Origin: Clostridiaceae bacterium
GTDB lineage: Bacteria > Bacillota > Clostridia > Saccharofermentanales > DTU023
Assembly (NCBI GenBank): GCA_012799825.1
Contig: JAAZKK010000050.1
Coordinates: forward strand, 1-29,237
Direction: 5' to 3'
Length of the DNA: 29,237 nt
Shown: one piece after another, positions 2,772 to 20,001 of the stretch
Layout of the letters: each line of letters opens with the position of its first letter
How positions within the stretch are numbered: the first letter of the stretch is position 1
Translations under genes and position numbers: made by a program
The notes under the pieces: generated by a model
Seen by the model: the letters and a program-made list of their open reading frames with translations, nothing else
What the model was told of the DNA's origin: nothing
The model's database searches: none

Positions 2772-2970
2772 CGCTGATGCAGGCGTTCTTTGTTGGTGCA
2801 AGCTCTCTTTACTAATGCAGCTACTCTTGGTTGATGCAGGCACTCATTGTTTGGGCTGGTTCTCTTTGTTGGGACAGACGCTCTTTGTTGGTTCAATCAT
2901 TTTTTGCTAATGTAGGCACTCATCGCTGATGCATGCGCTCTTTGCTGGAGCAGGCGCTCTCTGTCGGTGC
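2772..2970. repeat. About 19-bp degenerate tandem repeat (consensus near TTGGTGCAGGCGCTCTTTG)
   Basis: Serial copies: GCTGATGCAGGCGTTCTTTG, TTGGTGCAAGCTCTCTTT, ACTAATGCAGCTACTCTTG, GTTGATGCAGGCACTCATTG, ..., GCTGATGCATGCGCTCTTTG, CTGGAGCAGGCGCTCTCTG. Confidence 0.75.
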
Positions 2971-3013
2971 CGTCAGAAAAATGTCATCTGCATCAAAAAA
3001 TGACTCAAGGATT

Positions 3014-3658
3014 TTAGCCTTGTTGGCGCAGGTACCAATTGGGTGCATTGGGATCGTGACCATGTTTCTTGAGGTTTTTCAAAACCATTGATGTCAGGAA
3101 CTTTGAAAAAATACGAGTTACGAATCTACCGGGCGGGGTTTGAGCCTGTTCATAAAGACTGTCAAGTGAAGAGCTCCCTTCTGCGATATGTCTTATAAAC
3201 TGATTGAAAGCTGGCACGACCTTCTTTCTGCTCATGTGGTTCTCTAAGGGTTTGCCGTCCAGCATGGCGCCGCCACCCAACACAAAGCCGCCCTGCCATG
3301 AAAGATGGTTTTGCTCAGCGAATAATTGGAGAGTAGTTAGCCCGTGTCGGTGCGTATGGATGTAAGGCATGCCGCCGTTGATGATGCCGTACAGTTTCTG
3401 TCCCGAGAATCCGCCACTCCGGGATGCTGTCTCCAGCAACTCAATCAGTCTAGCCGGGTAGGTATTGATGTAACACGGGCCGGATATCACGATGGTTTCT
3501 GCCTGTTTCATGGTCATTGCAAATTCTTCGAGGCTGTCCTTTTGGGGCAAAAAAACGACATCTCCACCTGTGAGATTGCGTACGCGCTCCAACAACATGG
3601 CGCTCGTCCCTTTGCGTCTGGGGCTGGCACAAAGGAGCATGATATTGTACTTATTCAT
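3014..3658 (-). CDS. Flavodoxin-fold / NADPH-dependent FMN reductase-like protein
   Basis: 214 aa; N-terminal MLLCASPRRKGTSAMLLERV flavin-binding-like motif and ISGPCYINTYPARLIELLE; RBS GGAG before ATG. Confidence 0.7.
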   Translation of the reverse strand: MNKYNIMLLCASPRRKGTSAMLLERVRNLTGGDVVFLPQKDSLEEFAMTMKQAETIVISGPCYINTYPARLIELLETASRSGGFSGQKLYGIINGGMPYIHTHRHGLTTLQLFAEQNHLSWQGGFVLGGGAMLDGKPLENHMSRKKVVPAFNQFIRHIAEGSSSLDSLYEQAQTPPGRFVTRIFSKFLTSMVLKNLKKHGHDPNAPNWYLRQQG

Positions 3659-3930
3659 GGGCTATCTCCTTCGCGATTTTGCAAGACATGATTTCATCAA
3701 ACCTACACGTCCTCTAAAATTTCCGATTTTTTGTCAATCTCGTATGCGCACTGTCCTTCACTTTCACAATCTCGTTAATCTTGCATGCGCGCTACTATTT
3801 TCGACTTTTTGCCAATTTTGCATGTACTCTGCTTTTTTCGAAATTTTGTCAAATTAATATGTAGACTATCTCTTTTGCTTTTTCGTCACTAGCTTTCACG
3901 GATTTACACGTGGGCTATCTCTTTTGCGAT
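3655..3930. repeat. About 40-bp degenerate repeats between the two flavoprotein genes, including copies of the upstream gene's 3' end
   Basis: TGGGCTATCTCTTTTGCGAT (inside the upstream CDS, about 3911-3930), GTAGACTATCTCTTTTGC (3861-3878) and TGGGCTATCTCCTTCGCGATTTT (about 3659-3680); further copies anchored at 3744, 3785, 3822 and 3859 (spacing 41, 37, 37). Confidence 0.7.
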
Positions 3931-4443
3931 CGCTTCAATCGATACATTATCTGTGCGGCTATCGAGAATAAATGCACTTCCTTCAACGTTCATGATAATC
4001 CGGTTTTCTTTATGAAGGGCGAAAAAGGCTGACCGTTCCGCTTCGCTCAGCTTGTCGCCGACGCCGACCATATAGTAGTTCATCGTCTGCCCGCTCATGC
4101 CTTTGACGAGCTCCCCATTGTTCATATAATAGCGGGGATCGCCCAACGCGCACATACGGTCCATCACCTTCTTAATATGGTGGCTGACACCGCCAAAGAT
4201 CACGGGAGAAATCAGCACAAGCGCTCGACAGGCAGCGATTTTTGGCAGAACCTTTTGCATATCATCTTGGATTACACAACGGCCATACGTTTTCCCGCTG
4301 CAACTGCTACAGGCGGTACAAGGCCTGATATCTAGTTTGTTGACAGTAAAACGAACGACATGCGTTCCCGTATGGAGCACCGCTTCCCTCAGCGTTCTGC
4401 TCCAATTCCCTACGCGATTATCTGAAATAATCACTGCCGTCAT
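3904..4443 (-). CDS. NADPH-dependent FMN reductase / iron-sulfur-flavoprotein-like family protein
   Basis: 179 aa; Cys-rich CTACSSCSGKTYGRCVIQDDM, LVLISPVIFGGVSHHIKKVMDR; RBS AGGAGG upstream. Confidence 0.8.
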   Translation of the reverse strand: MTAVIISDNRVGNWSRTLREAVLHTGTHVVRFTVNKLDIRPCTACSSCSGKTYGRCVIQDDMQKVLPKIAACRALVLISPVIFGGVSHHIKKVMDRMCALGDPRYYMNNGELVKGMSGQTMNYYMVGVGDKLSEAERSAFFALHKENRIIMNVEGSAFILDSRTDNVSIEAIAKEIAHV

Positions 4444-4647: not shown

Positions 4648-5457
4648 ATGGACACAAAAAAGATTGGCACATTCCTAAAAGAATTAAGAAACGAAAATAA
4701 TTTGACGCAAGAGCAATTGGCAGAGCGCATGTATGTTTCTGGCAGAACTGTTTCTCGTTGGGAAACTGGAGCGACTTTGCCGAACATTGCGATTCTTATC
4801 GACCTTTCTGAGTTTTACAACGTTGATATAAGAGAAATCCTCGATGGCGAGAAAAAGGAACAATTTGGTAGAAAGGGTCAAATCACGGAGGAGCAGTTTT
4901 TTGAAAGAAGGAGTCAGTTTGATCGAGATGCGGAAATTGTGGAGACGCGACAAATCATGGAAAGGGAGCAAGTTGAGAGAGAGGAACAGTTTGATCAAGA
5001 TGGGCATGTCGTAGCAGATGGACAGATAGATGAAGAGGGGCAAATCGCAGAAAAAGACCGGTTTGTTCGTGATGGGCAAGTAAAGAAAGGACAGATCACA
5101 GAGAAAGGCAAGTATGTCCGAGATGAACAGATTATGGAGAAGGAGCAGTTCATGGAAAAAGAAAAGGAGAATACGATTTTGAAAGTGGCTGAATACAATC
5201 AGGAAGAAAAAAAGCGGATAATAAAGAAAGGACAGATCGGATTTATTATCTGTTTCATCTTTTCTCTTATCAAATTCACTATCGAGATCCTTGACCTTAA
5301 GAATGATGAATTTTGGTACAAGCTGGCTGATTTTGTTCGCGGCTTCATTGATGGTTTTATTTTCGTAATGATCATTGTCGGCATCCTTTACACGACAAAT
5401 CTTTTGAATAAAATTAAGAAAACAAAACAGCGCATCCTCAGAGGTCACAAAGGTTGA
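4648..5457 (+). CDS. XRE-family HTH regulator with hexapeptide-repeat linker and two C-terminal transmembrane segments
   Basis: HTH: IGTFLKELRNENNLTQEQLAERMYVSGRTVSRWETGATLPNIAILIDLSEFY; RBS GGGAGG; hydrophobic segments GFIICFIFSLIKFTIEIL and GFIDGFIFVMIIVGILY. Confidence 0.9.
   Translation: MDTKKIGTFLKELRNENNLTQEQLAERMYVSGRTVSRWETGATLPNIAILIDLSEFYNVDIREILDGEKKEQFGRKGQITEEQFFERRSQFDRDAEIVETRQIMEREQVEREEQFDQDGHVVADGQIDEEGQIAEKDRFVRDGQVKKGQITEKGKYVRDEQIMEKEQFMEKEKENTILKVAEYNQEEKKRIIKKGQIGFIICFIFSLIKFTIEILDLKNDEFWYKLADFVRGFIDGFIFVMIIVGILYTTNLLNKIKKTKQRILRGHKG
4864..5166 (+). repeat. In-frame about 18-bp repeat encoding about 17 hexapeptide units
   Basis: Units FGRKGQ / ITEEQ / FFERRSQ / FDRDAE / IVETRQ / IMEREQ / VEREEQ / FDQDGH / VVADGQ / IDEEGQ / IAEKDR / FVRDGQ / VKKGQ / ITEKGK / YVRDEQ / IMEKEQ / FMEKEK. 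Confidence 0.85.
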
Positions 5458-5803
5458 ATTTTGCTAACGAATTGAGATGAAACTTGTAATCATTCTTTTA
5501 ATCTTCTTTTATGAAGTGGTTCCGCGTTTTAGTGCTTACGAAGTCGGTTTAAAGGGCGGTTCCACTTCCTAATGTTTCAGTTTTCGGTTTAAGAGGAGTT
5601 TCATTACTTGGCCCTTCCGAGTTACGTTTCTTTGTCTGACAAACTTTTGAATCGCAGGCTGTAATTCTTAGATGCGAGAAATGCTCATCCGACTACAATA
5701 TCTTTAATACAGCAGCAACTCGTTATACAGATATGAAAGACTAATGCATAGACGTACTACTGTGTTACATGCGCTACTCGTTGCTCAGTCGTAAAAGCAT
5801 TGC

Positions 5804-5829
5804 GGCCAATCAGTTAAGCTTGATTGGCC
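5804..5829. repeat. Perfect 9-bp inverted repeat (hairpin)
   Basis: GGCCAATCA gttaagct TGATTGGCC; no adjacent T-tract. Confidence 0.5.
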
Positions 5830-5947
5830 ACAGATACGTTATGCGCTATATGTTGTTAATCGTCATATATGCTCGTGAACTCGAAGCTACGGGGCATTTT
5901 CCCGAAATGTTCCGAACATTGCATGATCGTGCTCGTGGATCTTGAGT

Positions 5948-6640
5948 TTACGGAACAAATACCCACGCGATTTCTGCGATTTTCGACCCAGATACGGTAA
6001 CCTCTACGAAGGTCAAACCGAGGTTATTATGCTCTATCGCAGGTATCATCGTGTTTAAAAATGTCTTGTAATCTACTTTGATGGGGTCAACCGACAATAT
6101 TTCATCAGGTAAATAAAACTGCGTGTTTTTCGTCGTGACAAACCATTTTGTTGGACCAACAGTGCGAATGTATCCGTATTCTTGTGTATCTTCTTCTGCT
6201 TCTTCCTGTGAGCAGCCGATATCGATCATATATGCTACGACCGCATCCATTCCAGTGAGCCATTCTACTTGGTCAAATGCGAATTCCGTCTCATATGGTT
6301 CTGTTCCTGCAGACCAGTCGGTCATATAAGCATAAAAAGTCTCGATTTTAGGAGGCTTCGTTGTTGTCGTGGTAGTTGTCGTCGTTGTGGTTGTCGTGGT
6401 TGTGGTTGTTGTCGTGGTTGTCGTATCGTCTACGCTCGTCGGAGGTATGGACGTTGCCGGAATCTCAGAGGGTTCTGTGGGCAGATCAGTGGCTTCTGTC
6501 GTCAGAGAGCTTGACTCCGGTGTGGTTTTTGAACTGGAGCCAAAGTTAAATAATTTCAGTAAATCGACGCACCCGCTTGATAAAGTTAAAGCACAGAGTA
6601 GCAAAAAAACTAACACTAATGCGATGATGTGTTTTTTCAT
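5948..6640 (-). CDS. Predicted lipoprotein with poly-threonine linker
   Basis: Signal peptide/lipobox MKKHIIALVLVFLLLCALTLSSGC, Ser/Thr/Pro-rich region with 22 consecutive Thr codons, then a globular domain; RBS GGAGG before ATG. Confidence 0.85.
   Translation of the reverse strand: MKKHIIALVLVFLLLCALTLSSGCVDLLKLFNFGSSSKTTPESSSLTTEATDLPTEPSEIPATSIPPTSVDDTTTTTTTTTTTTTTTTTTTTTTKPPKIETFYAYMTDWSAGTEPYETEFAFDQVEWLTGMDAVVAYMIDIGCSQEEAEEDTQEYGYIRTVGPTKWFVTTKNTQFYLPDEILSVDPIKVDYKTFLNTMIPAIEHNNLGLTFVEVTVSGSKIAEIAWVFVP
6359..6424 (-). repeat. (ACN)22 codon tract encoding poly-Thr
   Basis: Plus strand reads cgt tgt tgt cgt ggt agt ... cgt, i.e. mixed ACA/ACG/ACC/ACT codons on the minus strand. Confidence 0.9.
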
Positions 6641-7064
6641 AATTTATCCTCCTCTTCGTGATAGCGCCACAAGGCAGAAATCCATTCGCTTCATTGATTC
6701 GTGTCGTCTAAGGTCAGTACGATTGGTTGTATGTCGTCAAACACCATATTTCAAGCCGCTTTCCCATGCCGTTTACGATCTGCTCGTCTGCCCGCACATG
6801 AGTACATGAGATCGGCTTTCTTACAACTTTTTCCAATTTCCAAATTAAATAGTTTTTTTTCTCAACAAAATGAAGAGAGTACAAAGAAGATCGCACTTCC
6901 CTTTTCACTTTTCAACTTCAATTTGTTCTTACTTCTATTTTAGGAGCCGTTGAATGCGCTGAACAGCTACCAATTATGGTAGGTTTGTGCAAAGAAGACA
7001 TGCCTAATCTGTGGTAAGGTCATTTTTTACGAATGATTTACAGAAGATGTATTCCAGCATTAGT

Positions 7065-7490
7065 GAAGGCCGGCATGAGACCGACCTTCGACATAAATAA
7101 AAATATCACAATCGGTCAGAGCGAATCTTGCGGAAAGATCGCTGACCATTTTATCCTCGCGTCTCCCGTGCTGATACGTTGGCTAGCCTCAATTAGACTA
7201 CGTCGGCAGATCTCAGACAAAAGTCTCAGTACATCCCTCTGAGCAGATCGCGCTTAATCGCGTTGGTCGACTTTGACTAGAGCGAGCATGAAAGGTCACT
7301 GACCCTTTCATCCCTGCGTTCTCCGTGCTGATCAGGCTTAAACGCGTTAGCCTGCTTTGATCAGAGTAAGCCGGGCAGATCGCGAGAAAATTCTCCGTAC
7401 GTCACCCAAGGCTGGTCAGGCATGAACGCGTTGACCGACTTTGATTTGATCAGAGCGAGTCGGGCAGGTCGCGGGAAAATTTTTCTGCGA
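7065..7490 (-). repeat. 84-bp-period degenerate repeat array plus hairpins, overlapping and following the 3' end of the tryptophanase-family gene
   Basis: Cores at 7177 (CGTTGGCTAGCC), 7261 (CGTTGGTCGACTTTGA), 7345 (CGTTAGCCTGCTTTGATCAGAG) and 7429 (CGTTGACCGACTTTGATTTGATCAGAG), exactly 84 bp apart. Confidence 0.8.
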
Positions 7491-8895
7491 GTCTCTCCTG
7501 CCAGTCGGACAGGGGGGCGAGTTTCCCGAGGAAAAAACGCAGGATTTTCGGTTCGTGCTCGAAGCGCAGGCCGCCGATCAAATCGCGGTTTTCAAAGAGC
7601 CACGTCACGCGGTCGATCGCGTAGTCGATCTGGCTCAGGGTGAAAACGCGGCGCGGCATCGCAAGCCGCAGGAGCTCCATCTCAGCGATCTTCTCATTCC
7701 CGTCATCATCTCTATTTTCGCTTAGTGTACCGCGCTCCATCCCCCGGATACCACCGGCAATGTAGAGAGCCGCGGCAAGTGCTGCTGCGGGATACTGTTC
7801 TTGAGGAATATGCGGAACGAAACGTGAGGCGTCGAGATGACAGCCAAGTCCGCCCGCCGGCGTCACGACCGGAATGCCGCGTTTTTCGAGTTCGTCGACC
7901 ATGTAGGCGATAAACTCAGGGCCTTGTGACGTTATGGCAAGATCGAGCGTCTCCTCAAGCCCGACGGCAATCGCCTCAATCTCGCGAACGGACATGCCGC
8001 CATACGTGAGAAATCCTTCGTTCAGCACGATCAGCTCTTTGAGCGGATTGACAAGTTCGCTCTCTCTCATGCAGATGCCGCCACCTCGCGCAAAACCGAG
8101 CTTTCTCGCAGAGAAATAAATGATGTCGCACTCGTCAGCAACAGCACGCATGATTTCTCTAAGCGAGAGATCTTTGCATTCCTCATCCTTGATTTTCAAG
8201 AAATAGAGATTGTCCTGAAGAAGTGACGCGTCCATGACAAGCGGGATATCATGCTTCCGACAAATCGCCGCTGCCTCTTTCAGATTCCCGAAGGAGAACG
8301 GTTGCCCGCCGATCAGGTTTGTCCCCGCTTCGATACGGACAAATGGCACTCGATCATTATTCTCCTCCAAAAACTTTGCTAGCGCTTTCGTGTCAAAATT
8401 GCCTTTGAACGGGTAATCACTTTGACAGTTAAGGCCTTCCGGGATAAGAAATTCGATAACCTCACCGCCACAGCGTTCGATATGTGCTCTTGACGTTGTA
8501 AAGTGATAGTTCATTGGCACAATATCACCCGGCTTCACGAGCAGATCTGCGAGAACCTTTTCACAGCCGCGACCTTGGTGGGCAGGCAAAAAGTGTTCCA
8601 TTCCGAAGATGTCTTGGACTGTTTTCTCGAGCCGGAAAAAGGACTCGCTGCCGGCGTAGGCGTCGTCTGCCCTCATCATCGCTGACTGCTGGCGATCGCT
8701 CATCGCGTTGACGCCGCTATCGGTCAACATGTCGAGAAAAATATCCTTATTGTGTAAAAGATAGAGATTGCTCGATGCTTCCTTTAGACGGGCGAGCCGT
8801 TCCTCAACCGGCAGCAGATTCAACTGCTGTACAATGCGCACCTTATGGCGCTCGAGCGGGATTTTCCTGCCGTCAAAAAAAGAGATGGTTTCCAT
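7450..8895 (-). CDS. Tryptophanase / tyrosine phenol-lyase family beta-eliminating lyase (PLP-dependent)
   Basis: METISFFDGRKIPLERHKVRIV...LLTDSGVNAMSDRQQSAMMRADDAYAGSESFFRLE...LPAHQGRGCEKVL...NLIGGQPFSFGNLKEA...DIPLVMDASLLQDNLYF...IIYFSARKLGFARGGG...EGFLTYGGM...ELLRLAMPRRVFT. Start ATG at 8895 has AAGGAGG upstream; the tracked start at 9066 lies inside the leader. Confidence 0.9.
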   Translation of the reverse strand: METISFFDGRKIPLERHKVRIVQQLNLLPVEERLARLKEASSNLYLLHNKDIFLDMLTDSGVNAMSDRQQSAMMRADDAYAGSESFFRLEKTVQDIFGMEHFLPAHQGRGCEKVLADLLVKPGDIVPMNYHFTTSRAHIERCGGEVIEFLIPEGLNCQSDYPFKGNFDTKALAKFLEENNDRVPFVRIEAGTNLIGGQPFSFGNLKEAAAICRKHDIPLVMDASLLQDNLYFLKIKDEECKDLSLREIMRAVADECDIIYFSARKLGFARGGGICMRESELVNPLKELIVLNEGFLTYGGMSVREIEAIAVGLEETLDLAITSQGPEFIAYMVDELEKRGIPVVTPAGGLGCHLDASRFVPHIPQEQYPAAALAAALYIAGGIRGMERGTLSENRDDDGNEKIAEMELLRLAMPRRVFTLSQIDYAIDRVTWLFENRDLIGGLRFEHEPKILRFFLGKLAPLSDWQERLAEKFSRDLPDSL

Positions 8896-8988
8896 GCGTT
8901 CGTTCCTCCTTAGCTTTTTTCGATGCCATCGCGGCATCTCGCATGATCCGGCACTCATCGAGCCGGTGATCCGGGGGACGAAATGGAA

Positions 8989-9027
8989 TAAAAAACGTCC
9001 GCCCGACATTTTTTGTCGAGAGGACGT
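8989..9027 (-). terminator. Intrinsic terminator of the T-box leader
   Basis: Minus strand: ACGTCC-TCTCGACAAAAAATGTCGGGC-GGACGT-TTTTTA; nested GAC/GTC stem and a T-tract. Confidence 0.9.
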
Positions 9028-9049
9028 CTGCTGACGTGATACCACCTCT
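9019..9049 (-). promoter_or_regulatory. T-box antiterminator
   Basis: Minus strand: AGAGG-TGGTATC-ACGTC-AGCA-GACGT-CCTCT. Two perfect 5-bp helices flank the diagnostic 7-nt UGGNAcc-type bulge (9038-9044), and the 3' half is shared with the terminator stem. Confidence 0.88.
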
Positions 9050-9617
9050 CTTCGCTTCCACCTCACGGTGAAAACCTCTGCCGGTACGCCGATTCCTCAC
9101 TGCGAAGACAAAGTGGCCGTCTTCACAAAATCGGTTATACCGCCGCGCTGTCACGGGCGCACCCGTCGCCTCCTACCTCCGATCATACGGTCTCAGGACG
9201 CTGCTCGCGGAATGTATTCATCTCACCGTCTGCTTTTTGCCTCGCACCACCCGGCATATCTCTGGAAGCTTTCAATGGGATTACTTGTTTCCGGTCATGG
9301 CATTTATGTTGTTTACTGTACCACAGGAATAGATCTTTGGCTAGACACAAAATGAATGATTTTTTCAAAAACGTCCAGATAGTCCAGATAGTTGAGAATA
9401 ATTCAGCTGAATACTTTCTGAAAACAAAAGAATATACGCAAAAGTGACAACAGAAGCTTAGATATAAAGACATGTTGTTACTTTGCTCTATTCATAAACC
9501 AACACTAGTACTCATTCCGTTACGGACATGACCAGATGAAATGAAGGAACTACAAGGAAAAGCATCTTTAGTCCTATCAGTTTTAGCTCTGACCTGACGG
9601 AACGAGTTAACCTCACA

Positions 9618-9773
9618 ATGATGAGTATGGACATATACGATAACCTCATCAACAAACAGGAGCTCTATCGTTTGCTCAACGAAGCCGAAGACAATTTCAA
9701 ATCAGGTAATGAGATGAGCTCCCGTGAGTCACTTCAAAAATTGCGCAAGGGTTTAAACGACAGAACAACGTAA
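9618..9773 (+). CDS. Small ORF (51 aa), possible remnant of an antitoxin C-terminus
   Basis: MMSMDIYDNLINKQELYRLLNEAEDNFKSGNEMSSRESLQKLRKGLNDRTT; helical, resembles Phd/YefM-type C-terminal tails. No clear RBS or toxin partner. Confidence 0.25.
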   Translation: MMSMDIYDNLINKQELYRLLNEAEDNFKSGNEMSSRESLQKLRKGLNDRTT

Positions 9774-10138
9774 TTCTGTCAAAGCCAAAGATACCATCAA
9801 AGTATTAAAGTGTTCATCAGCTGCCCAGTCATGACTTGAAAACTTCAAAAATAGCGATTAAATTTCTTGATGCGGTAGAAAAGACGGATCAGGGATTAAA
9901 GGTGATACCTTTACCGCTTTGAACTGGTGAAAGTTGAGATAATATAGCAACGGGAATATTAAAAATACTCTATTAGCAATTATCTCTTTTTGCAATATTT
10001 CTGAAAATGATGTCCATGTTTACTGCACTATCTATAGAAGAATGAACTTGGAGCTTATGTTTTAAAAACTAACACCCCTCTATGTATTGCAAAATTACGG
10101 CCATTTTTCATGCATTTTGTAGGGCACGGCGTCATTAT

Positions 10139-10906
10139 TCACCTGTCGGACAACAACACCTTGTTCTGATGTGTCCCAACAAGCTGTTGTATGTGCCGAT
10201 AGCTCCCCATCTCCCGGTACGCGTCAGGGAGGCCTGCCTTGTCAAGCATTCTCAGGAAGGAGTAAGCATCGTCGTATATGCGGCTATTGCCTTTTGTGAC
10301 GTAGTAATGCCCGTCGTGCGCTCGGTAATCAATCTCGTATATCTCCGAGCCGGGCACCTTGCCAATGCCAAAATCAATGAGTACCAATTGTTTTTTGTCG
10401 TTTATCAGCAGATTAGTAGCGCTGATGTCACAGTGGACGATTTGGAATTGCCGGAAGCATTTGTGTATCTCGATAAATTCGCCGCAGTACCGCTCAAACA
10501 GGTGCTCATCCGTCGGAATTTCAAAGTTGCGCAAATCAGCAAAAAATTGCGTGACTAGCAACGAGGTGTTTGTATCAAACGCCTTATCACTAGTCAATGT
10601 CCTCGGCACAAAGGGCAAATCGCAACTGGTTACATAGTGGTTGACAAAGATTTCGTTCCGAATGGTGCTGTCATTTTGCGCCAGCTTGACAAAACAAGTC
10701 TCCCCACGGTAATTTCCCTTGTAGTATTTGCGGATGGTTCCCTCACTGTCATCACCGATATACCAATTCTCCGTCCGATAAAGCTGTAAATCGGAAAGGC
10801 CATAGTCGGCTAGCTGGCTGATGGTTCGTCTGTGCTGCTCCGTTAGGTATTCATCCATGAACTGCCTGTGACGGCGCGGGTCGGTTGGAATTGGTTGGCT
10901 ACCCAT
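10139..10906 (-). CDS. Protein-kinase-fold phosphotransferase, last gene of the yhf/hyu operon
   Basis: 255 aa; IVHCDISATNLLINDKKQLVLIDFGIGK (HxDxxxxN + DFG), candidate N-lobe Lys in CFVKL. Confidence 0.75.
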   Translation of the reverse strand: MGSQPIPTDPRRHRQFMDEYLTEQHRRTISQLADYGLSDLQLYRTENWYIGDDSEGTIRKYYKGNYRGETCFVKLAQNDSTIRNEIFVNHYVTSCDLPFVPRTLTSDKAFDTNTSLLVTQFFADLRNFEIPTDEHLFERYCGEFIEIHKCFRQFQIVHCDISATNLLINDKKQLVLIDFGIGKVPGSEIYEIDYRAHDGHYYVTKGNSRIYDDAYSFLRMLDKAGLPDAYREMGSYRHIQQLVGTHQNKVLLSDR

Positions 10907-10926: not shown

Positions 10927-12084
10927 TCAGTTCAATTGGTTACCGTATTTGTCGAAGATGCCTAGCATACGTGGAGCGCCGGTCCTTAGCCCTTCCACCA
11001 CCGCGATGGATGCATTTACTACGAAAAGCTGCGTTCGGAAAGCATACAGCACACCAGTTCCTACTGGTTCTGAGCATTCCAGCTGCGCATAGTAGTCGAT
11101 GTTGCCCGGCTGTACGTTCTCTGCGTTAACCAAATGATAGCCGCTCTCTTGGGCTACAATGGCGCGATGGATCTTAGCACGTCCATAGAAACCGCCGCCG
11201 AATACACAGCTTTTTCCGTTCCACTTGTGGGAAACCTCAGTAACGTATGCCATCGCCATTATTTCAACGCCGGGTGTACTGGTTGCACTTCGGTAGGTGG
11301 TTCCCGTGAATGCGTGCCCTGGCTCCAGATGAGTGACACCACCCCCGGCCGCTAGGGAAAAGGTAGCGCAGTCGTTCCCGCCCGGAGCATTGACCTGCTG
11401 TACCCGACAACCACAGTTCCTGCCTATATCTACCGCCTTACGCAAGGTATGAAAGTTGTGGGTGGGCTCCACCCGCTCGGAATCAAGACCTAACGCAAAA
11501 CAGGGAAAGGCTGTGAAACCCACAAGTTCCACATGTTCAAGCTGCTGAATTTCCTCAATCACCATCGGAAGTTGCTCAAGGCTAACTCCGCCATATTGCT
11601 GTGGATAGATAGTATCACCGACCTCGGTCACGCGTAGCAACAGTTGCTGCCGTCTACCGCTTTTATTCGCGTGACGGGATATTTTTTTTGCATTTTCAAT
11701 ATCCATCACGGTGATCACTTCTGGATCCATAGCTAGAGCCTCGTCCACACACCACTCAGGAATTTGCATGAGGTGTCCCAAATGCCCAATGACGAAGCCC
11801 TGACGGTGTAACGCCCGTGCTTCATCTATGCTCACAGCCACCGCCCGGGGGATACCACACTCAGCAATGGTCTTGCAAACCACAGGAATGCGCCCAATTT
11901 GCTTGGTCATCATGTACAGCTGCAGACCGAAATTATCCGCCGTTTCTTTTATTACAGAAGCGTTGCGCCGGATCGCGTCTAAGTCCAACACATAGGTGTT
12001 GGGAAGAATCCTACCGGTTCTATGAGCATATATCGACCATTCCACAAGGTCTAAATTCTGCTGAAGCAATGCGTCAACAAACAC
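10927..12084 (-). CDS. yhfX-like: YhfX-like PLP-dependent (alanine racemase-type fold) enzyme
   Basis: 385 aa; PNTYVLDLDAIRRNASVIKETADNFGLQLYMMTKQIGRIP...; GTG start with AGGAGG; 3 bp after the yhfS-like stop codon. Confidence 0.8.
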   Translation of the reverse strand: MFVDALLQQNLDLVEWSIYAHRTGRILPNTYVLDLDAIRRNASVIKETADNFGLQLYMMTKQIGRIPVVCKTIAECGIPRAVAVSIDEARALHRQGFVIGHLGHLMQIPEWCVDEALAMDPEVITVMDIENAKKISRHANKSGRRQQLLLRVTEVGDTIYPQQYGGVSLEQLPMVIEEIQQLEHVELVGFTAFPCFALGLDSERVEPTHNFHTLRKAVDIGRNCGCRVQQVNAPGGNDCATFSLAAGGGVTHLEPGHAFTGTTYRSATSTPGVEIMAMAYVTEVSHKWNGKSCVFGGGFYGRAKIHRAIVAQESGYHLVNAENVQPGNIDYYAQLECSEPVGTGVLYAFRTQLFVVNASIAVVEGLRTGAPRMLGIFDKYGNQLN

Positions 12085-12087
12085 GGT

Positions 12088-13251
12088 TCAGTCCTCCTGC
12101 ATTATACTTTTTAGAGCTTCCTTCAAAATCCTCACTACAGTGTCGGCTCCAGCCCGCATAACATTAATGCGAATGTAATAGTTTAGACGCTCGGGGTTCT
12201 CAACGGCGAATGTTCTGGAAACCGTATAAAACAGCGCAGGGATCTCGTATTTCGATTCCGCCCCCACCGGACGGGGAGACGCACCCAGTTTTTCCGCCTG
12301 AGAAAGAACTCTGTAGGCAATGGGCTGTTCAAACTCAACCAAAAGTACTCGGGACTGCATATTGGCAACAAATACCCGACGAATGCCCCAAATCTTTTTG
12401 TCAGCAAGTTTTTGGATATCTACTCGCGCCTGCTCGGTTTGCATTGCCTGCACTGCCATGGCAACCGGTACGTTCACGAGACTTCGCAAGGCCTCCATGG
12501 CCTCCATTCCCTGCACCTGTGAGCCACCGGTACAGTTGCGTCGGCGAATGCGTTGCAGCAACTCGCGCTTGCCCAGCACACAACCAATACCTTCAGGTCC
12601 CTGCAGCTTGAAGAGCGAAAAAGCTGCAAGGTCCGCCCCTGCGGCAATGCCACACAACGGGGTTTTCAGCACAGCGTAGTTGTCGTCCACCACAACCTGA
12701 CACCCACAGCCTTTCAACGTCGCAATCACATCGCGAAGAGAATAGCTGTCGGTGAGCAACTGTCTTGCGTGTTGAACAACCGCTACGCTGGGCTTCTGCA
12801 AGGTAACAACGCTACGGGTTTCCTCCAGATCGTTGTAGTTCGCATTTACAACTCGCAGGGCCATGTCACGCAGGGTGATCTCGGTGGAAGGGTAGATAGG
12901 CGCAGCGTGCACCAGCACACTGCCACCCGGCTGTGCTACCGCCCCAAGAGCCTCACGAATGGCTCCGGTTCCAGCACCACGAACCAAAACGCAGTCCTGC
13001 GCGCCAAAAAATTGCGCCAGCGTCTGTTCTGCAAGGGTCGTGTGCAGGGGGCTACCGCCCTGCACAAGACCAAGATCACCCTGTTGCAAAAAAAGGCCGT
13101 TAGGGAAGTTCCTGTGTATACAATCCACCAATTTGAATTGCAGTTCCATTGCTTGCTCGATCGAAAGGGCATCCAACATTCCTGCTGTTGGCATCTCATC
13201 ACCTCGCATCCTCTGGCTATTTGGTTGTTTTGCGGGACACGCCTCGCTCAT
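12088..13251 (-). CDS. yhfS-like: YhfS-like PLP-dependent aminotransferase-fold enzyme
   Basis: SLFKLQGPEGIGCVLGKRE Lys region, ADLAAF, DNYAVLKTP; start either ATG 13251 (ATGA overlap with hyuA stop) or ATG 13194 with GAGGTG upstream. Confidence 0.8.
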   Translation of the reverse strand: MSEACPAKQPNSQRMRGDEMPTAGMLDALSIEQAMELQFKLVDCIHRNFPNGLFLQQGDLGLVQGGSPLHTTLAEQTLAQFFGAQDCVLVRGAGTGAIREALGAVAQPGGSVLVHAAPIYPSTEITLRDMALRVVNANYNDLEETRSVVTLQKPSVAVVQHARQLLTDSYSLRDVIATLKGCGCQVVVDDNYAVLKTPLCGIAAGADLAAFSLFKLQGPEGIGCVLGKRELLQRIRRRNCTGGSQVQGMEAMEALRSLVNVPVAMAVQAMQTEQARVDIQKLADKKIWGIRRVFVANMQSRVLLVEFEQPIAYRVLSQAEKLGASPRPVGAESKYEIPALFYTVSRTFAVENPERLNYYIRINVMRAGADTVVRILKEALKSIMQED

Positions 13252-15296
13252 TCCCAAGTGATGATGAGGTTTCCGCCTTTTTCGCAGTAAAATCTGTCAC
13301 CAGGCCCCACAAAAATTGTGGTGTCCATCTGCTCGATAATGACCGGACCTATTCCCGAATACCCCTGAGGAAGATCATCTCGTCGGAAAACTGGAACCTG
13401 TTGGAAGCCCGTCTCCCGGAAGTAGACCGACCGCTCGGTTGCCGGTTTTGGAACAGCCGCCCCGCCAACTTCAAAGAAGCCTATGTCGCCCGATTTATCC
13501 AGTATACCGAAGCCAGAGCAGCGGATACTGACCAACTCCAGTGGTTCGTCGTTCGAAGCAGCATACCCATAGGACGCTTGATGCAGGACATGGAATTTCT
13601 CGGCTATGACGTCCCACCCATCGCCCGCAATATCCTCCGGATCGATCTCCATGGTCAGCTCGTGAGTCTGAGCCATGTAGCGAAGGTCAGCGTAAATGGT
13701 AAACCGCCGGTGATCCGAGTCAAAATCTGCTCGAGCCAGGTCTTCACTCGCCTTTGTTAGTAGGACATGATAGCGCTTACGTAGCTGGGCAGGTGCGAGT
13801 TCAGATAGTGGCAGAATCACGCTCTCCACGTAATCGTATCGCACGTCGCTCATCAAAAGGCCGATAGCGGCCGTGATGCCGGGGTAGCGGGGAACAATGA
13901 CCTTAGTCATATTCAGTGTTTTAGCAACAGCAACTGCCTGTAACGGACCCGCGCCTCCGCAGGCAAACAGGGCAAACTCCCTGATGTCGAATCCACGGTT
14001 AGCGACCAAACGACGCACGGCGTTGGCAATATTCTCGTTTACGATGTCCAACATGCCCTGAGCCGCCTCGTACACATCCATGCTGAGAGGCTCCGCTATC
14101 TTTTTGGCAATCGCATCGTGGCTCAAGGCAACATTGATGGGGAAGCTACCACCCAAAAGTGCCGTTTGGTTCAGCCGCCCCAGCAACACGTTGGCGTCGG
14201 TAAGTGCCGGTTCCTCACCGCCCTGATTGTAGCACACCGGCCCCGGCATGGCTCCAGCGCTGGTGGGGCCCATGTTCAGCATGCCGCCCCGGTCTATCCA
14301 TGCCAGAGTGCCGCCACCCGCTCCAATGGTAGCCACGTCGATGATGGGTAAATGCACCACGGTGCCAAATTCGATCTCCTGCTCGTCGCGGGTCATTAAT
14401 TCACCGTTATACACTATGGCAATGTCGGTGCTGGTGCCGCCGCTGTCGATAGAAATCACCGACCGCTCGTCAAGCTGCTTCGAAATGCCCTTCATGGCAA
14501 TGGCCGCTGCAGCTGGTCCCGAGAGCAGGGTGCGCGGAGCAATATGCTCCACCGGGTATACTGGCGCCACCCCACCATTGGACAGCATCAAAAGAATATC
14601 ATTTTGATACCCCTTTTCTCGGCTATCCCGACTCAGAATATCGATATAATCCTTCAAAAGGGGTCCCACATAGGCAGCCACGCTCACGGTGCTCATGCGT
14701 TCAAATTCACGCCATTCACGTAACAGCTCGCTTGATGTGGTAACGTACAGATGAGGATATGCCTCACGGATGATGGCTGCCGCCTGTTCCTCGTGGGAGG
14801 GGTTGATGTAGGAGTTGATGAAGCAGATGGCCACAGCTTCAATCCCCTCGCTTGTCATCCCTTCCACCAGACTGAGCAATTCACTCTTATCCACTGAGCG
14901 AATCACATTTCCCATACTGTCGATCCGTTCGTCTAACTCTAGGCGGTAGCGGCGCTCTACCAGCTCATCCGGCTGATCCCATTGTAGATCATATAGCCGA
15001 CCACGAGTGGTGCGACGGATCTTTAAAACATCCCGAAAGCCCCTCGTGGTAATCAAAGCAACTTTCGATCCCTTCTTTTCGATAACGGCGTTTGTGGCTA
15101 TGGTTGTGCCGTGCATAAACAGATCCACAGCGGACAGGTCGTATCCACTTTGGGCAATGGCATTCATTACCCCTTCGCGCAGGTTGTGCGGAGTGCTGTG
15201 CACCTTTTTTACAATGGTTTTTCCGGTGACTGGATCTAGAAAAATCCCGTCGGTAAAGGTTCCGCCAACATCAATTCCTATGTTTGTAGTTTTCAT
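13248..15296 (-). CDS. hyuA-like: Hydantoinase/oxoprolinase family protein, HyuA-type subunit (N-methylhydantoinase A-like)
   Basis: 682 aa; NIGIDVGGTFTDGIFLD, MHGTTIATNAVIEKKG, SIDSGGTSTDIAIV, FACGGAGPLQAVAVAKTL. Confidence 0.93.
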   Translation of the reverse strand: MKTTNIGIDVGGTFTDGIFLDPVTGKTIVKKVHSTPHNLREGVMNAIAQSGYDLSAVDLFMHGTTIATNAVIEKKGSKVALITTRGFRDVLKIRRTTRGRLYDLQWDQPDELVERRYRLELDERIDSMGNVIRSVDKSELLSLVEGMTSEGIEAVAICFINSYINPSHEEQAAAIIREAYPHLYVTTSSELLREWREFERMSTVSVAAYVGPLLKDYIDILSRDSREKGYQNDILLMLSNGGVAPVYPVEHIAPRTLLSGPAAAAIAMKGISKQLDERSVISIDSGGTSTDIAIVYNGELMTRDEQEIEFGTVVHLPIIDVATIGAGGGTLAWIDRGGMLNMGPTSAGAMPGPVCYNQGGEEPALTDANVLLGRLNQTALLGGSFPINVALSHDAIAKKIAEPLSMDVYEAAQGMLDIVNENIANAVRRLVANRGFDIREFALFACGGAGPLQAVAVAKTLNMTKVIVPRYPGITAAIGLLMSDVRYDYVESVILPLSELAPAQLRKRYHVLLTKASEDLARADFDSDHRRFTIYADLRYMAQTHELTMEIDPEDIAGDGWDVIAEKFHVLHQASYGYAASNDEPLELVSIRCSGFGILDKSGDIGFFEVGGAAVPKPATERSVYFRETGFQQVPVFRRDDLPQGYSGIGPVIIEQMDTTIFVGPGDRFYCEKGGNLIITWE

Positions 15297-17026
15297 TCGG
15301 CAGCCTCCCTCATCTCCGCCCGCAGCCGGTCGCTAGCGGCGGTATCCACTTTGTCCTGATCGTCGATGACAATACCATATTCTTGATACAAGTGCTCGCT
15401 TGAGAGAAGCCCGTGCAAGAAATCCTTTTCCGCGAGGGCGTAGTCTCGCTCCAGCGGATCACCGTAGCCGCCGCCGCCTGCAACCAAGACGGTCACCTCG
15501 TCGCCCTCTTTCACTAGGTAGTTGCTGGCTTTCAGGGTAAGGTTCACCTCACGTTCGGTTCCCATGTTTAGTACCAGTCCTTGGGGCATTGCCGGCTTGC
15601 CACCAAACAGACCCCAAGGAGGAAATTTCTCCCTGTCACCGAGGGCGCTCAGTTTTGCGGTGCCTCGAGCTATCACAAAGCGCTTGATAGAGCCGTTGCC
15701 ACCCCGAAAGCGGCCAGGGCCACCCGAGTCCTGTCGTAGCGACCACTGGTTGAACAGTATGGGGTACTTGCGCTCAAACACCTCCACGGGGGTGATGCGA
15801 GCACCGCCCCCAAACAGTGACACAAGGCCAGAAGAGCCGTCCTTGGTGGCACGCCCGCCAAAGCCACCTTCGCTGAAAAGATACATCACATAGTATTCGC
15901 CGGTCTTGTCGTCCACACCTCCCATAACTAAGTTGATCAGCCCGTGGGGGCACCCGGTGGACTTTTCTGGGCAGGCATGGGCCAGCGCGCCCAATGAGAC
16001 GCCGATTACTTTCTCGTACACCGTGCCCGCCATGGCGCTAATGGCCGCGGGAGGTCGTGCGTTCACCACCGTTCCCTCGGGGATGATGAAGGAAATGGGC
16101 AGAAAACAGCCGTAGCTCATGGGAACATCGGGAAACAGCGACTTTATTGTGACGATGACTGCCGATACCGTGGAGGAATATGTGCCGTTAGCGGCGCTGC
16201 GTGTCTGTGGGTCAGAGCCTGAAAAATCAAATTCCATGCGATTTCCCTTCACCGTCATCTTCACGGCAATTTTCACCGGGTCTTTGCAATACTTACTTTC
16301 CTCGTCCATATACTCTTCAAAGAAATAGCTACCGTCTGGAATTTTATCAATCTCCTTTTCCAGCATCACCTTGGCGTACTCAATGGTTTCTTCCATAAAC
16401 TCTAGGATGTTTTCCACACCGTACTTATCCGCCAACTCGATGACCCGGCGCTCGCCAATGGCTACCGAGGATATCTGGGAGGAGAGGTCTCCCTCTCGCT
16501 CCCAAGGAATGCGCACGTTTGACATGATGATATCGTGGACACCCTTGGCCATTACGCCACGCTCCATAATCTTCACTGGCGGTATGCGGAGACCTTCTTC
16601 AAAGTGCTCTTCAGCAACAGAGTTCAGGCTACCAGGTGTAGAACCTCCCACGTCAGCCCAGTGCCCAGCAATGGCCACAAATCCAATGCGCTTGCCCTTG
16701 TAAAACACTGGCTTGATGACCCCTACATCGTTGAAATGGGTGCCGCCAATAAAGGGGTCATTGTTGATAAACACATCGCCTTCAAACAAGTTTCCTTCGT
16801 AGACTTCCACGATTTTTCGCACGGAATATTGCATCATAGTAACGAATACCCCTAGGTCAGATTCTCCCTGAACGATCAAATTGCCGTTACCATTGAATAA
16901 GGCAGCACCTATATCCCGTCCTTCTGTAATGACCGCGGAATAAGCCGAGCGAAACATGTTGATATTCATTTCATCTGCAATACTTTTAAAGGCGCTTTGC
17001 AAAACCGAAAAAGTAATGGTATCCAT
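15293..17026 (-). CDS. hyuB-like: Hydantoinase B/oxoprolinase family protein, HyuB-type subunit
   Basis: MDTITFSVLQSAFKSIADEMNINMFRSAYSAVITEGRDIGAALF...NNDPFIGGTHFNDVGVIKPVF...RRDSGGPGRFRGGNGS-type motif; ATG 17026 with GGAGGAC upstream; ATGA overlap with hyuA. Confidence 0.93.
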   Translation of the reverse strand: MDTITFSVLQSAFKSIADEMNINMFRSAYSAVITEGRDIGAALFNGNGNLIVQGESDLGVFVTMMQYSVRKIVEVYEGNLFEGDVFINNDPFIGGTHFNDVGVIKPVFYKGKRIGFVAIAGHWADVGGSTPGSLNSVAEEHFEEGLRIPPVKIMERGVMAKGVHDIIMSNVRIPWEREGDLSSQISSVAIGERRVIELADKYGVENILEFMEETIEYAKVMLEKEIDKIPDGSYFFEEYMDEESKYCKDPVKIAVKMTVKGNRMEFDFSGSDPQTRSAANGTYSSTVSAVIVTIKSLFPDVPMSYGCFLPISFIIPEGTVVNARPPAAISAMAGTVYEKVIGVSLGALAHACPEKSTGCPHGLINLVMGGVDDKTGEYYVMYLFSEGGFGGRATKDGSSGLVSLFGGGARITPVEVFERKYPILFNQWSLRQDSGGPGRFRGGNGSIKRFVIARGTAKLSALGDREKFPPWGLFGGKPAMPQGLVLNMGTEREVNLTLKASNYLVKEGDEVTVLVAGGGGYGDPLERDYALAEKDFLHGLLSSEHLYQEYGIVIDDQDKVDTAASDRLRAEMREAAE

Positions 17027-17115
17027 AATTGTCCTCCAATGGCTTGTAAGTTGCCACAGTTTGGTTACTGGTTTACCTATACTGATCGCCGTATCAGCAG
17101 AAGGTACCGCCGAGC

Positions 17116-18420
17116 TTAGTTTTTGGCAGGAATTGGCTTCATTACCTTGCTTAGGACGAGGTAAGCCACACCGCCCACAACCAGACTGTTGATGCCCGAA
17201 ACACCGATGGCAGCGTAGGGCAGCACACCCAAGGGATTGCCGGTAAAAAAGTCTGCAACAACCGCGATAATCCATGCTAGTATGGCCGGCCAATGGAAAT
17301 CCCCTATACCTTCAGTCTTTTTTTCAACGCCCCGCCTTACATAGAAATAGTCGATGGCGATAATGATGCCAATAGGCGGCATGAGCATGGCCAGTACTCC
17401 CAGATAGACAGCTAGATTCGTATACACGCCGGTAGCGCACACAATTGTTCCGATGAGCACCGTGACGATGGTGAAGATGTATTTTGGCATTTTGAACAGT
17501 TTAGAAAGAGCTAACCCGGCGGAATAGACGTTGTTGTCAGCAGAGGACCAAGTGGAAAACAGCAGAAGCAGAAAGCCGATGACGGTGAATAGTTTGCCTC
17601 CCATAGTCACGATGAGAGTCACCAGATCGGGGCTTCCGGTGCCCTTCACCGCAATGGCACCTAGAGAAACAAAGATGAAGAATCCGAGACCGAAAGAGAG
17701 CAACGAGGCTCTTGCAGCGCTTTTTCCAGTCTTGTCATAACGAGTCACATCTCCTGCCAGCGTGGCGCCGGCGATAAAAATACCGATGGTGGTGGTAACG
17801 CCCGTACCAAAGGTGATTGGAGCAGTTGTGGGGCCAATTTGGTTGATAGCAGTCCAACCGCCGCCGGCGATGATACCCTTGATAGCAGCAATCAGAACGA
17901 GTAGACACATGGGAACAACGATGAAGTTGCTGAGTGCAGCAACGCCCCTAAAGCCCAAAAAGGCGGAGGTGCCCATGAGTAGGCTAGCTATGATGCCACC
18001 TGACACGGTCAGTGAGCCGCTTGCCATCCCAAACAAAGCCTCTAGACTAGGGATGAAAAACCCAACGGTTACACCGTAAAACAGTATGTTGGCAATTGCC
18101 ATGGCAGCTGCCACGATGTTGGAACCCCTTTCGCCAAACGCGATTCTCGCAACCATAGATGTGGACAAGCCCTCCTTGGCGCCAATCATTGCCAGCGGCA
18201 TGGAGTAGACACCCAAAATCACGGCGCCTACAAAGATGGCCAGCAGAGCCATGGGCAGGGTCATGCCGGTGGCAATGTTGCCTCCTGTGATGGCAGGAGC
18301 AGGGTTTATGACCCAGCACAACAGCACGGAGATGATGGTGAACATACTTTTTCGTTCGCTTTGTGGTACTACGGACAGTTCGTTATCTTGCAAAACGCTC
18401 TTGCTTTTACTCTTGTTCAT
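17116..18420 (-). CDS. NCS1-family (CodB/cytosine permease-like) transporter
   Basis: 434 aa, about 12 hydrophobic segments; WVINPAPAITGGNIATGM, YSAGLALSKLFKMPKY, GIIIAIDYFYVRRG; RBS GGAGG. Confidence 0.85.
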   Translation of the reverse strand: MNKSKSKSVLQDNELSVVPQSERKSMFTIISVLLCWVINPAPAITGGNIATGMTLPMALLAIFVGAVILGVYSMPLAMIGAKEGLSTSMVARIAFGERGSNIVAAAMAIANILFYGVTVGFFIPSLEALFGMASGSLTVSGGIIASLLMGTSAFLGFRGVAALSNFIVVPMCLLVLIAAIKGIIAGGGWTAINQIGPTTAPITFGTGVTTTIGIFIAGATLAGDVTRYDKTGKSAARASLLSFGLGFFIFVSLGAIAVKGTGSPDLVTLIVTMGGKLFTVIGFLLLLFSTWSSADNNVYSAGLALSKLFKMPKYIFTIVTVLIGTIVCATGVYTNLAVYLGVLAMLMPPIGIIIAIDYFYVRRGVEKKTEGIGDFHWPAILAWIIAVVADFFTGNPLGVLPYAAIGVSGINSLVVGGVAYLVLSKVMKPIPAKN

Positions 18421-18587
18421 GATACTTACCTCCTCATTTTCTTTTACTATGGTGTATCATTGTGTATCCCGCAGGTGTCCTCACTCGACAGAAGTGTGTC
18501 CTGTCTTTTTAGTGGGGAGTTTCACACAAACGGGAAACTTCCAACCGGATTTATCCGCCTCCACAGAACACTGCGCAGCGGGTGCCT

Positions 18588-19811: not shown

Positions 19812-19875
19812 TTTGCGCCTTTCTGCTTGGGATGGTGTTAACAACTAACTTATATACAGAATTTTGTACTATTTG

Positions 19876-20001
19876 CTATATCATATCACGTGTTTTACCC
19901 TGCGTCAATGCACGATACATATGAATTATTTGTTTATAAATTGTGCATTTTCCATAATTATTCGGAATCATTATTGCTCTTTTCTCTGCGTGATGATATA
20001 G
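19876..20001. promoter_or_regulatory. Candidate operator pair in the divergent yhfW-yhfZ intergenic region
   Basis: CTATATCATATCACG (19876-19890) and its near reverse complement CGTGATGATATAG (19989-20001). Confidence 0.4.

Follow-up and report, generated by a model that had tools for sequence, protein, structure and literature searches.

Tyrosine phenol-lyase (TPL) and tryptophanase are, of course, textbook catabolic enzymes, each induced by its substrate. Here, we consider a member of their family of pyridoxal phosphate (PLP)-dependent lyases that may serve the opposite end. Its gene lies on the minus strand of a 29,237-nucleotide contig from a Clostridiaceae bacterium (JAAZKK010000050.1, assembly GCA_012799825.1; this whole stretch is called the window), and it follows a T-box riboswitch that responds almost certainly to tRNA-Tyr. 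The explanation that we favor, with rather more confidence than doubt, is that the lyase is part of a tyrosine-supply regulon, and that the likeliest chemistry of the enzyme is the making of tyrosine from phenol.

Several described systems resemble parts of this locus. The nearest in protein sequence are the classical tpl genes, as in Citrobacter freundii and Erwinia herbicola, which are activated by tyrosine-bound TyrR together with CRP (PMC10170061) and are considered catabolic (PMC1173090). Their reaction is reversible. TPL makes tyrosine from pyruvate, ammonia, and phenol, with a reverse kcat 1.5 times the forward value, and also makes it from serine and phenol (PMC10170061). The window's lyase belongs to the same family and has in common with these enzymes the PLP lysine, Y71, T124, M379, R381, F448, and F449 (C. 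freundii numbering). It differs from them in its modest identity (about 42%), in belonging to a separate clade where R217L, H343L, and K256R are fixed, and in a score below the cut-off of the TPL equivalog model. The regulation is also opposed. Classical tpl is induced by tyrosine, whereas the window's lyase would be induced by a lack of charged tRNA-Tyr.

The tnaCAB operon of Escherichia coli belongs to the same superfamily, and it too is controlled by transcription attenuation in an upstream leader. There, however, attenuation is mediated by the ribosome and the TnaC peptide, is relieved by tryptophan, and serves catabolism; the leader in the window has no leader peptide.

T-box leaders attenuate transcription differently. 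The terminator is the default, and the 3' end of an uncharged cognate tRNA stabilizes an antiterminator, which allows readthrough. The founding example is the tyrS leader of Bacillus subtilis, where work by Grundy and Henkin, and by Grundy, Rollins and Henkin in 1994, reportedly described the T-box and the discriminator A73 of tRNA-Tyr (as cited in PMC7778990). Like the leader in the window, it has a UAC specifier, a UGGU that matches A73 of tRNA-Tyr, and a competition between terminator and antiterminator. The tyrS T-box controls an aminoacyl-tRNA synthetase, whereas the T-box in the window controls a lyase, carries a 60-nt insertion, and scores just below the Rfam cut-off.

Two other tyrosine T-boxes may be compared. 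In the Bacillus cereus group, a Tyr T-box governs phenylalanine hydroxylase, which makes Tyr from Phe in one step, so that tyrosine limitation calls up this second route besides the de novo operon (PMC2494555). This phenylalanine-4-hydroxylase T-box is the best precedent for the logic that we propose for the window. The enzyme there is a pterin-dependent hydroxylase whose direction is not in doubt, while the enzyme here is a PLP lyase. In Enterococcus durans, a Tyr T-box again stands in a setting of tyrosine consumption, the tyramine (TDC) cluster, and the gene under it is induced without tyrosine; this gene is the tyrosyl-tRNA synthetase (TyrRS) paralog tyrS, whereas the T-box in the window governs the tyrosine-converting type of enzyme itself (PMC3315439).

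The T-box leader and its amino acid

An earlier note, made from the letters of the window alone, had proposed that a T-box at 8989-9245 controls a gene of the tryptophanase/TPL family. The element is real and the pairing holds, with the upper limit moved outward by 62 nt. The complete transcriptional T-box leader occupies the minus strand from 9307 to 8987, and the ATG of the lyase gene follows at 8895. Its parts, all on the minus strand, are these.

9315..9343, minus strand: weak candidate sigma-70 promoter, found by eye (TAGCCA, 17-nt spacer, TACAGT after TGg)
9017..9307, minus strand: T-box leader, full-length match to RF00230 (covariance model and nhmmer profile)
9203..9301, minus strand: Stem I (covariance-model alignment, model positions 1-103 with all motifs; motif positions)
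9301..9293, minus strand: K-turn/GA motif GCCAUGACC in Stem I (covariance-model alignment, motif search)
9265..9255, minus strand: AG bulge within CCAGAGAUAUG, Stem I (covariance-model alignment, motif search)
9252..9240, minus strand: distal loop GGGUGGUGCGAGG, Stem I (covariance-model alignment, motif search)
9214..9216, minus strand: specifier codon UAC (Tyr), in the context GAA-UAC-A and then helix UUCCG (covariance-model alignment, motif positions)
9053..9202, minus strand: Stem II / IIA-B / Stem III region, with a 60-nt lineage-specific insertion (covariance-model alignment)
9018..9050, minus strand: antiterminator helix with the T-box sequence (folding, motif positions)
8987..9029, minus strand: intrinsic terminator whose 15-bp stem is interrupted and whose loop is A-rich (hairpin 9029..8993, then UUUUUUAUU)
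8905..8911, minus strand: ribosome-binding site AAGGAGG, 9 nt before the ATG
7450..8895, minus strand: PLP-dependent lyase gene of the TPL/tryptophanase family, 481 amino acids (translation, PF01212)

The gathering score of the Rfam T-box model RF00230 is 93 bits, and a default search of the window is silent. Once an E-value threshold is applied instead, the T-box is revealed as a match to the full length of the model (positions 1-219) on the minus strand at 9307..9017, with 89.1 bits and an E-value of 5.4e-20. The 3.9 bits by which the leader falls short of the gathering threshold are due to the 60-nt insertion, which sits between Stem IIA/B and Stem III and recurs in two homologous loci, L001 and L002. 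We therefore treat the low score as a threshold artifact, not as a failure of membership. Among 13 homologous leaders, 12 reach the threshold (93.0-154.2 bits), and an nhmmer profile built from homologous leaders finds the one in the window with an E-value of 2.7e-64.

The earlier note had named a missing Stem I or specifier loop as grounds for refutation. The covariance search resolved both. The K-turn and 5' strand, which make up the 5' half of Stem I, span 9307..9246, and compensatory changes occur in 17 of the 18 predicted pairs of the stem across 21 homologous leaders.

The antiterminator had been read as AGAGG-UGGUAUC-ACGUC-AGCA-GACGU-CCUCU, overlapping an intrinsic terminator upstream of the lyase, and both readings proved exact. 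The sequence stands at 9049..9019 on the minus strand, begins with AGAGGUGGUAUCACGUC (9049..9033), and folds with UGGUAUC (9044..9038) as its 7-nt bulge, at -13.7 kcal/mol (z -3.3). Across 23 leaders, covariation is seen at five of its nine pairs, and none of the 23 departs from GGUGGUA. The terminator, 9029..8987, folds at -21.8 kcal/mol (z -5.13), a stability reached by none of 200 shuffles. Because the 3' arm of the antiterminator is also the 5' arm of the terminator, the two structures are mutually exclusive. The 89 nt between the terminator and the ribosome-binding site fold no better than shuffled sequence (z -1.2).

The candidate promoter scores 8/12, which is under the threshold of the scanner, hence its absence from the scanner's list. 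From it we infer a transcript start about 7 nt downstream, near 9308, in agreement with the Rfam match, whose 5' end is at 9307.

Which amino acid does this T-box sense? The specifier is UAC. Bacterial tRNA-Tyr carries A73, and the UGGU of a T-box pairs with A73-C-C-A; in the window, this UGGU is 9044..9041. Both the UAC specifier and the UGGU bulge are present in all 25 leaders of the set described below, where UAC is the sole invariant triplet. The base that follows it is in most leaders a conserved purine (A in the window, G in L032), with C in L080 only.

Readings other than tyrosine were weighed on the same alignment. The triplet in the +1 frame is a threonine codon throughout (ACA in most of the 25 leaders, ACC in L080, ACG in L032), and tryptophan is the amino acid that the "tryptophanase" label would suggest. 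The earlier note had set tryptophan aside since UGGU implies A73. The match to A73 stands; the exclusion was unsafe, because 46% of the Trp T-boxes in TBDB have U at the variable position of the bulge and pair with G73 by a G:U wobble (PMC7778990). Thus, the bulge alone cannot exclude tryptophan, and it is the specifier codon that decides. In the canonical register (the codon columns of the Rfam model; positions 2-4, counted from where the bulge ends), this codon is UAC in every leader. Its U, A, and C are each invariant, yet the third base of the ACN triplet varies. The specifier loop has no UGG, and so the combination of a UGG specifier with an A73-bearing tRNA-Trp, which the earlier note had considered, is not what the locus holds. 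The enzyme has a tyrosine-type pocket, and its operon partner, where it has one, is TyrA. On register, on the invariance of UAC, and on the tyrosine-related enzyme and operon partners, both the threonine and the tryptophan readings are rejected; a T-box that is not specific for tyrosine is barely conceivable here.

The wiring to tyrosine suggested in the earlier note is thus borne out. Taking identity and specificity together, there is very little doubt that 9307..8987 on the minus strand is a canonical transcriptional T-box riboswitch for tRNA-Tyr. As an RNA, it is an ordinary tyrosine T-box of known class. What is unusual is the gene that it controls.

The lyase clade and its pairing with the T-box

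The lyase gene is monocistronic in the window; the next gene on the same strand lies 810 nt downstream. Its protein matches PF01212, the beta-eliminating lyase fold (E 4e-47), and NF009709, a broad NCBIfam "tryptophanase" subfamily (581 bits). It misses the cut-offs of the narrower equivalog models: 428.8 bits against 720.7 for TPL (TIGR02618), 343 against 825.8 for TnaA (TIGR02617), and 397 against 750 for tryptophanase (NF053783). The score below the TIGR02618 cut-off means that it is not filed as an ortholog of characterized TPL. The name "tryptophanase" (sometimes "tyrosine phenol-lyase") that these proteins carry in the sources stems from the broad model NF009709.

Among solved structures, the best relatives are TPLs (E 2e-117), with tryptophanases behind (E 1e-96 and weaker). 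For a comparison by residue, 81 members of the family were aligned with C. freundii TPL and E. coli TnaA; positions below follow the C. freundii enzyme. The pocket that is diagnostic of TPL (T124, M379, R381, F448, F449) is invariant in the clade, as are the catalytic and binding residues K257, Y71, D214, N185, and R404. In the numbering of the clade's own protein, the PLP lysine K257 and Y71 are K265 and Y80. E. coli TnaA has D137, V394, I396, and H463 at diagnostic positions, and the residues of its indole pocket (D137, I396, H463) are absent from the clade, which has T, R, and F there. A neighbor-joining tree makes the clade sister to C. freundii TPL, with E. coli TnaA as the outgroup.

Judged by its sequence, then, the lyase is a member of a third, separate clade that has a tyrosine-type pocket and is filed neither as TPL nor as tryptophanase. 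Since the clade lacks the tryptophanase pocket and fails both equivalog cut-offs, predictions of indole production that are based on the label are doubtful.

The clade is large. At least 591 species-representative genomes have a match at 60-89% identity, and the taxa among the matches listed include Firmicutes, Proteobacteria, Spirochaetes, Actinobacteria, Verrucomicrobia-like bacteria, Synergistetes, Fusobacteria, and one archaeal metagenome-assembled genome (MAG). An nhmmer profile of the leaders was run against the best 80 of these loci. A T-box stands directly upstream of the lyase gene in 22 of the 80, all of Firmicute type. One locus with a close protein (L002, 87% identical to the window's) is labeled Chloroflexota. 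In all, the pairing is found in the window and 24 other lineages. Two of these are cultured isolates, Acidaminobacter hydrogenoformans (101.7 bits) and Miniphocaeibacter massiliensis (118.6 bits).

The members that bear a T-box are dispersed over the protein tree, its deepest branches included. This scatter implies that the association is old or recurrent, and not the outcome of a single recent event. In most of the other T-box loci, too, the lyase gene is monocistronic.

As a control, we surveyed 80 metagenome loci whose TPL is canonical, with 62-100% identity to that of C. freundii. None has a T-box, in a set whose taxa are mostly non-Firmicute; ten loci were checked for taxon, and a single one is a Firmicute (Oscillospiraceae). 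The control lends weak support to the view that the T-box is specific to this clade.

These results bear on the idea that the enzyme is an ordinary catabolic TPL, converting tyrosine to phenol, pyruvate, and ammonia, which the T-box would couple to starvation for the scavenging of carbon and nitrogen. The family annotation and the TPL-type pocket are what such an enzyme would have, and the non-Firmicute members without a T-box could well be catabolic. A signal from uncharged tRNA-Tyr would, however, then induce the destruction of tyrosine and worsen the very shortage that gave rise to it. Classical catabolic tpl uses the reverse logic, where tyrosine induces through TyrR, and the canonical TPL loci just described lack the T-box (with, of course, one Firmicute among the ten taxon-checked). 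Co-transcription with genes for tyrosine biosynthesis, described below, contradicts the idea as well. We regard it as decidedly improbable.

Two other elements were seen in leaders of the family. A Firmicute sub-clade without the T-box has an alternative conserved leader of about 270 nt before the lyase gene (L011 3731-4003, L021 3723-4003, L023 3323-3595, L029 3699-4003, L045 3717-4003). It begins with an invariant 5' GCAUGGUAUUAYRGUAG and has a hairpin with a U-run (AAAUACCCUG...AGGGUAUUUUU), then a stretch complementary to the 5' end that would form a 14-bp long-range helix. The L023 copy has no match in Rfam, and Rfam shows no known RNA family in 15 Firmicute loci of the lyase without a T-box. 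This leader may be another attenuator or riboswitch, or an operator pair. Further, a short GC-rich hairpin (GGGCGUnCCGGCGCCAAAGGGCnCGCCC and variants) is conserved between the T-box terminator and the ribosome-binding site in seven leaders (L015, L018, L028, L032, L038, L041, L053). It is absent from the window.

Genomic context and the proposed function

Most of the genomic context was silent. When all flanking open reading frames were clustered, no neighbor was conserved across loci, and Pfam scans of neighbors were uninformative at the non-T-box loci and for most downstream genes at the T-box loci. The exception was a DAHP synthase at L067, a lineage from a biogas reactor, which pointed to an operon. 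Longer contigs of this lineage (L174-L178) were retrieved.

On these contigs, a single strand carries the Tyr T-box (231-588 in L174), the lyase gene, a gap of 61 nt, DAHP synthase, and prephenate dehydrogenase (TyrA), followed by EPSP synthase (AroA), chorismate synthase (AroC), DHQ synthase (AroB), shikimate dehydrogenase (AroE), shikimate kinase (AroK), and, at the end, type II dehydroquinase (AroQ). The 61-nt gap has a GC hairpin and no U-run terminator. This gene order on one strand makes the lyase gene the first cistron of a biosynthetic operon for the tyrosine branch.

Contig L176 shows both branches. Its Tyr T-box (3523-3821, plus strand, UAC, 118 bits) precedes the lyase, DAHP synthase, TyrA, and shikimate genes, which run from 4219 on the plus strand. 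Divergent from it is a Phe T-box (2835-3121, minus strand, specifier UUC, bulge UGGU, 102 bits), and under this stand a second DAHP synthase and prephenate dehydratase (PheA), at 800-2741 on the minus strand. The two divergent T-boxes thus divide aromatic biosynthesis by branch. Between them, at 3315-3439, is a near-perfect palindrome of about 125 nt whose two strands are each hit by a plant miRNA model; the miRNA assignment is spurious.

A second lineage is informative as well. In L042 (Ca. Spyradenecus, not a Firmicute, without a T-box), the genes that come after the lyase gene on its strand encode DAHP synthase and a prephenate dehydratase (PDT)-chorismate mutase protein (PheA-CM). L006, which is Kiritimatiellae-like, has a class I/II aminotransferase gene (5490-6797, plus strand) 41 nt downstream of the lyase gene, a point that bears on the aminotransferase reading discussed below.

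It is because of the Tyr T-box conserved in 25 lineages, and because of the operon with DAHP synthase, TyrA, and shikimate genes, that we place the lyase in a tyrosine-supply regulon. The proposed course of events is as follows. By default, the terminator (-21.8 kcal/mol) would form, and transcription would halt ahead of the lyase gene. When tRNA-Tyr is uncharged, its 3' end would pair with UGGU and stabilize the weaker antiterminator, and RNA polymerase would continue into the single lyase gene downstream. Given the mechanism of the class and the tRNA-Tyr reading, the lyase would be transcribed under tyrosine limitation, and thus be made when tyrosine is scarce, as a member of the tyrosine-supply regulon. 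From sequence and context, an anabolic, tyrosine-supplying role, by whatever chemistry, is probable.

The chemistry is a separate question. The most likely would be the TPL reaction in reverse, from phenol, pyruvate, and ammonium, or a beta-replacement between phenol and serine, either of which would give L-tyrosine. That would make the enzyme a "tyrosine synthase" for the salvage of phenol, well placed in anaerobic digesters rich in ammonia and phenol. The exact protein of the window is present in metagenomes from biogas fermenters, and many MAGs of the family come from digesters and termite guts; the occurrence of the lyase in digesters and biogas reactors makes the habitat fit the idea of phenol salvage. 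Whether phenol salvage is the specific chemistry, we would put at about even chances. The synthetic direction, which the earlier note had raised, is unproven, although the 25-lineage T-box and the L174 operon support it much better than before.

The same operon allows a different chemistry. In L174, all seven shikimate steps and TyrA are present, no aminotransferase is, and the lyase homolog is the sole PLP enzyme. The protein might therefore be a tyrosine-forming aminotransferase, acting on 4-hydroxyphenylpyruvate and an amino donor, as a non-orthologous replacement for the aromatic aminotransferase missing from the operon, or some other PLP enzyme of the tyrosine branch. The PF01212 fold is that of the fold-type I aminotransferases. 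R217 and H343, which both true beta-lyases have, are lost throughout the clade while the tyrosine-binding pocket is retained, and an aminotransferase would be equally consistent with the logic of the T-box. Yet the protein, at about 42% identity to TPL, retains the set for cleaving or forming the C-C bond (K257, Y71, T124, R381, F448, F449). Its gene is solitary, away from tyrA, in 24 of the 25 T-box lineages, and the aminotransferase gene next to it in L006 means that the two coexist. We know of no case where a TPL has switched to transamination. An aminotransferase is thus possible, although less likely than TPL-type synthesis of tyrosine; taken by itself, we consider it unlikely.

The solitary gene, horizontally mobile across phyla, would also be compatible with detoxification. 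Toxic analogs of tyrosine (halogenated, hydroxylated, azatyrosine-like) that block TyrRS would leave tRNA-Tyr uncharged, which would induce the lyase, which would in turn cleave the analog. This fits the logic of the T-box, and TPL tolerates many ring-substituted tyrosines and phenols (PMC10170061). Detoxification would, however, leave unexplained why the gene holds the first position in an operon of DAHP synthase, tyrA, and shikimate genes, and likewise why it precedes DAHP synthase and pheA in L042. No genes of resistance type, such as efflux genes or a second tyrS, were among the neighbors inspected. We know of no precedent for the detoxification of analogs under a T-box, and hold this to be improbable.

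Several facts weigh against a tyrosine-forming TPL under a tyrosine T-box, and they should be set beside it. The T-box is present in about 22 of some 47 loci with a Firmicute (Bacillota/clostridial) label, as counted from record titles among the best 80, and thus in only about half; members in other phyla have no T-box upstream by the nhmmer profile among the same 80. The operon with tyrA is confined to one lineage, while other loci lack informative neighbors. No phenol-related partner gene is linked to the lyase gene. A search of the window and of 48 loci for tRNA genes, by which A73 of tRNA-Tyr might be confirmed, yielded none. In the protein, residues common to TPL and TnaA are substituted in all 81 aligned sequences (R217L, H343L, K256R, E69D). 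The replacements for the cofactor-site residues R217, H343, and K256 are invariant as L225, L350, and R264 of the clade's own protein. Y122 of TPL is H throughout the clade (F135 in E. coli TnaA). These changes may mean a chemistry that differs from that of TPL. Last, the reverse reaction of classical TPL has Km values of 1.1 mM for phenol, 12 mM for pyruvate, and 20 mM for ammonia, a millimolar need (PMC10170061).

With all this weighed, we would give about equal odds for and against the fuller proposition that the clade is a dedicated tyrosine-forming enzyme (a phenol-salvage synthase as the leading candidate, a TPL-derived aminotransferase as the alternative) that was recruited to the Tyr T-box regulon in Firmicutes. 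Full-text searches of the literature returned no paper linking a T-box to TPL or tryptophanase, and none placing TPL in tyrosine biosynthetic (tyrA) operons. A lyase of this kind in a tyrosine-supply regulon, and what follows from it, appear to be unreported so far.

The rest of the window and the wider meaning

The rest of the window holds features of its own. Between the T-box and a kinase-like gene (10139-10906, minus strand) is an AT-rich spacer of 830 nt (9308-10138) with a tandem GTCCAGATA repeat. An open reading frame of 51 amino acids in it (9618-9773, plus strand) looks antitoxin-like by eye and has no match in Pfam. The spacer probably consists of decayed genes.

Farther on, at 10927-20987, a minus-strand operon encodes YhfX-like (alanine racemase fold) and YhfS-like (aminotransferase V fold) proteins, hydantoinases A and B, a permease of the cytosine/purine type, and a metalloenzyme resembling YhfW, with a divergent YhfZ-type regulator at 19890-20987 on the plus strand. 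The gene content resembles a catabolic island of the yhf type to which a hydantoinase/oxoprolinase pair has been fused. On the other side of the lyase gene, 5948-6640 (minus strand) encodes a predicted lipoprotein with some 23 threonines in unbroken succession and a linker rich in Ser, Thr, and Pro; the protein has only a weak "Mucin" match in Pfam. At 3014-4443 (minus strand) and 4648-5457 (plus strand), two adjacent FMN-reductase-like genes stand beside an HTH_3 regulator whose C-terminal half is repetitive and rich in Glu, Gln, and Lys, and ends in a membrane-like tail.

As for the lyase, a conserved tyrosine riboswitch and an operon with tyrA and shikimate genes argue for a physiological, tyrosine-making role for a TPL-like enzyme. 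If this is true, anaerobes would have a new one-step entry into tyrosine, and a phenol-salvage synthase would be the tyrosine counterpart of the salvage of indole by tryptophan synthase beta. The "tryptophanase" annotation in at least 591 species-representative genomes would then be wrong both in substrate and in physiological direction. The clade spans many phyla and is found in biogas reactors, guts, and termite guts, and metabolic models, as well as predictions of which organisms produce indole or phenol, would be misled by the label. If phenol is indeed the substrate, a toxic product of fermentation and of lignin would be tied to the amino acid economy of ammonia-rich digesters.

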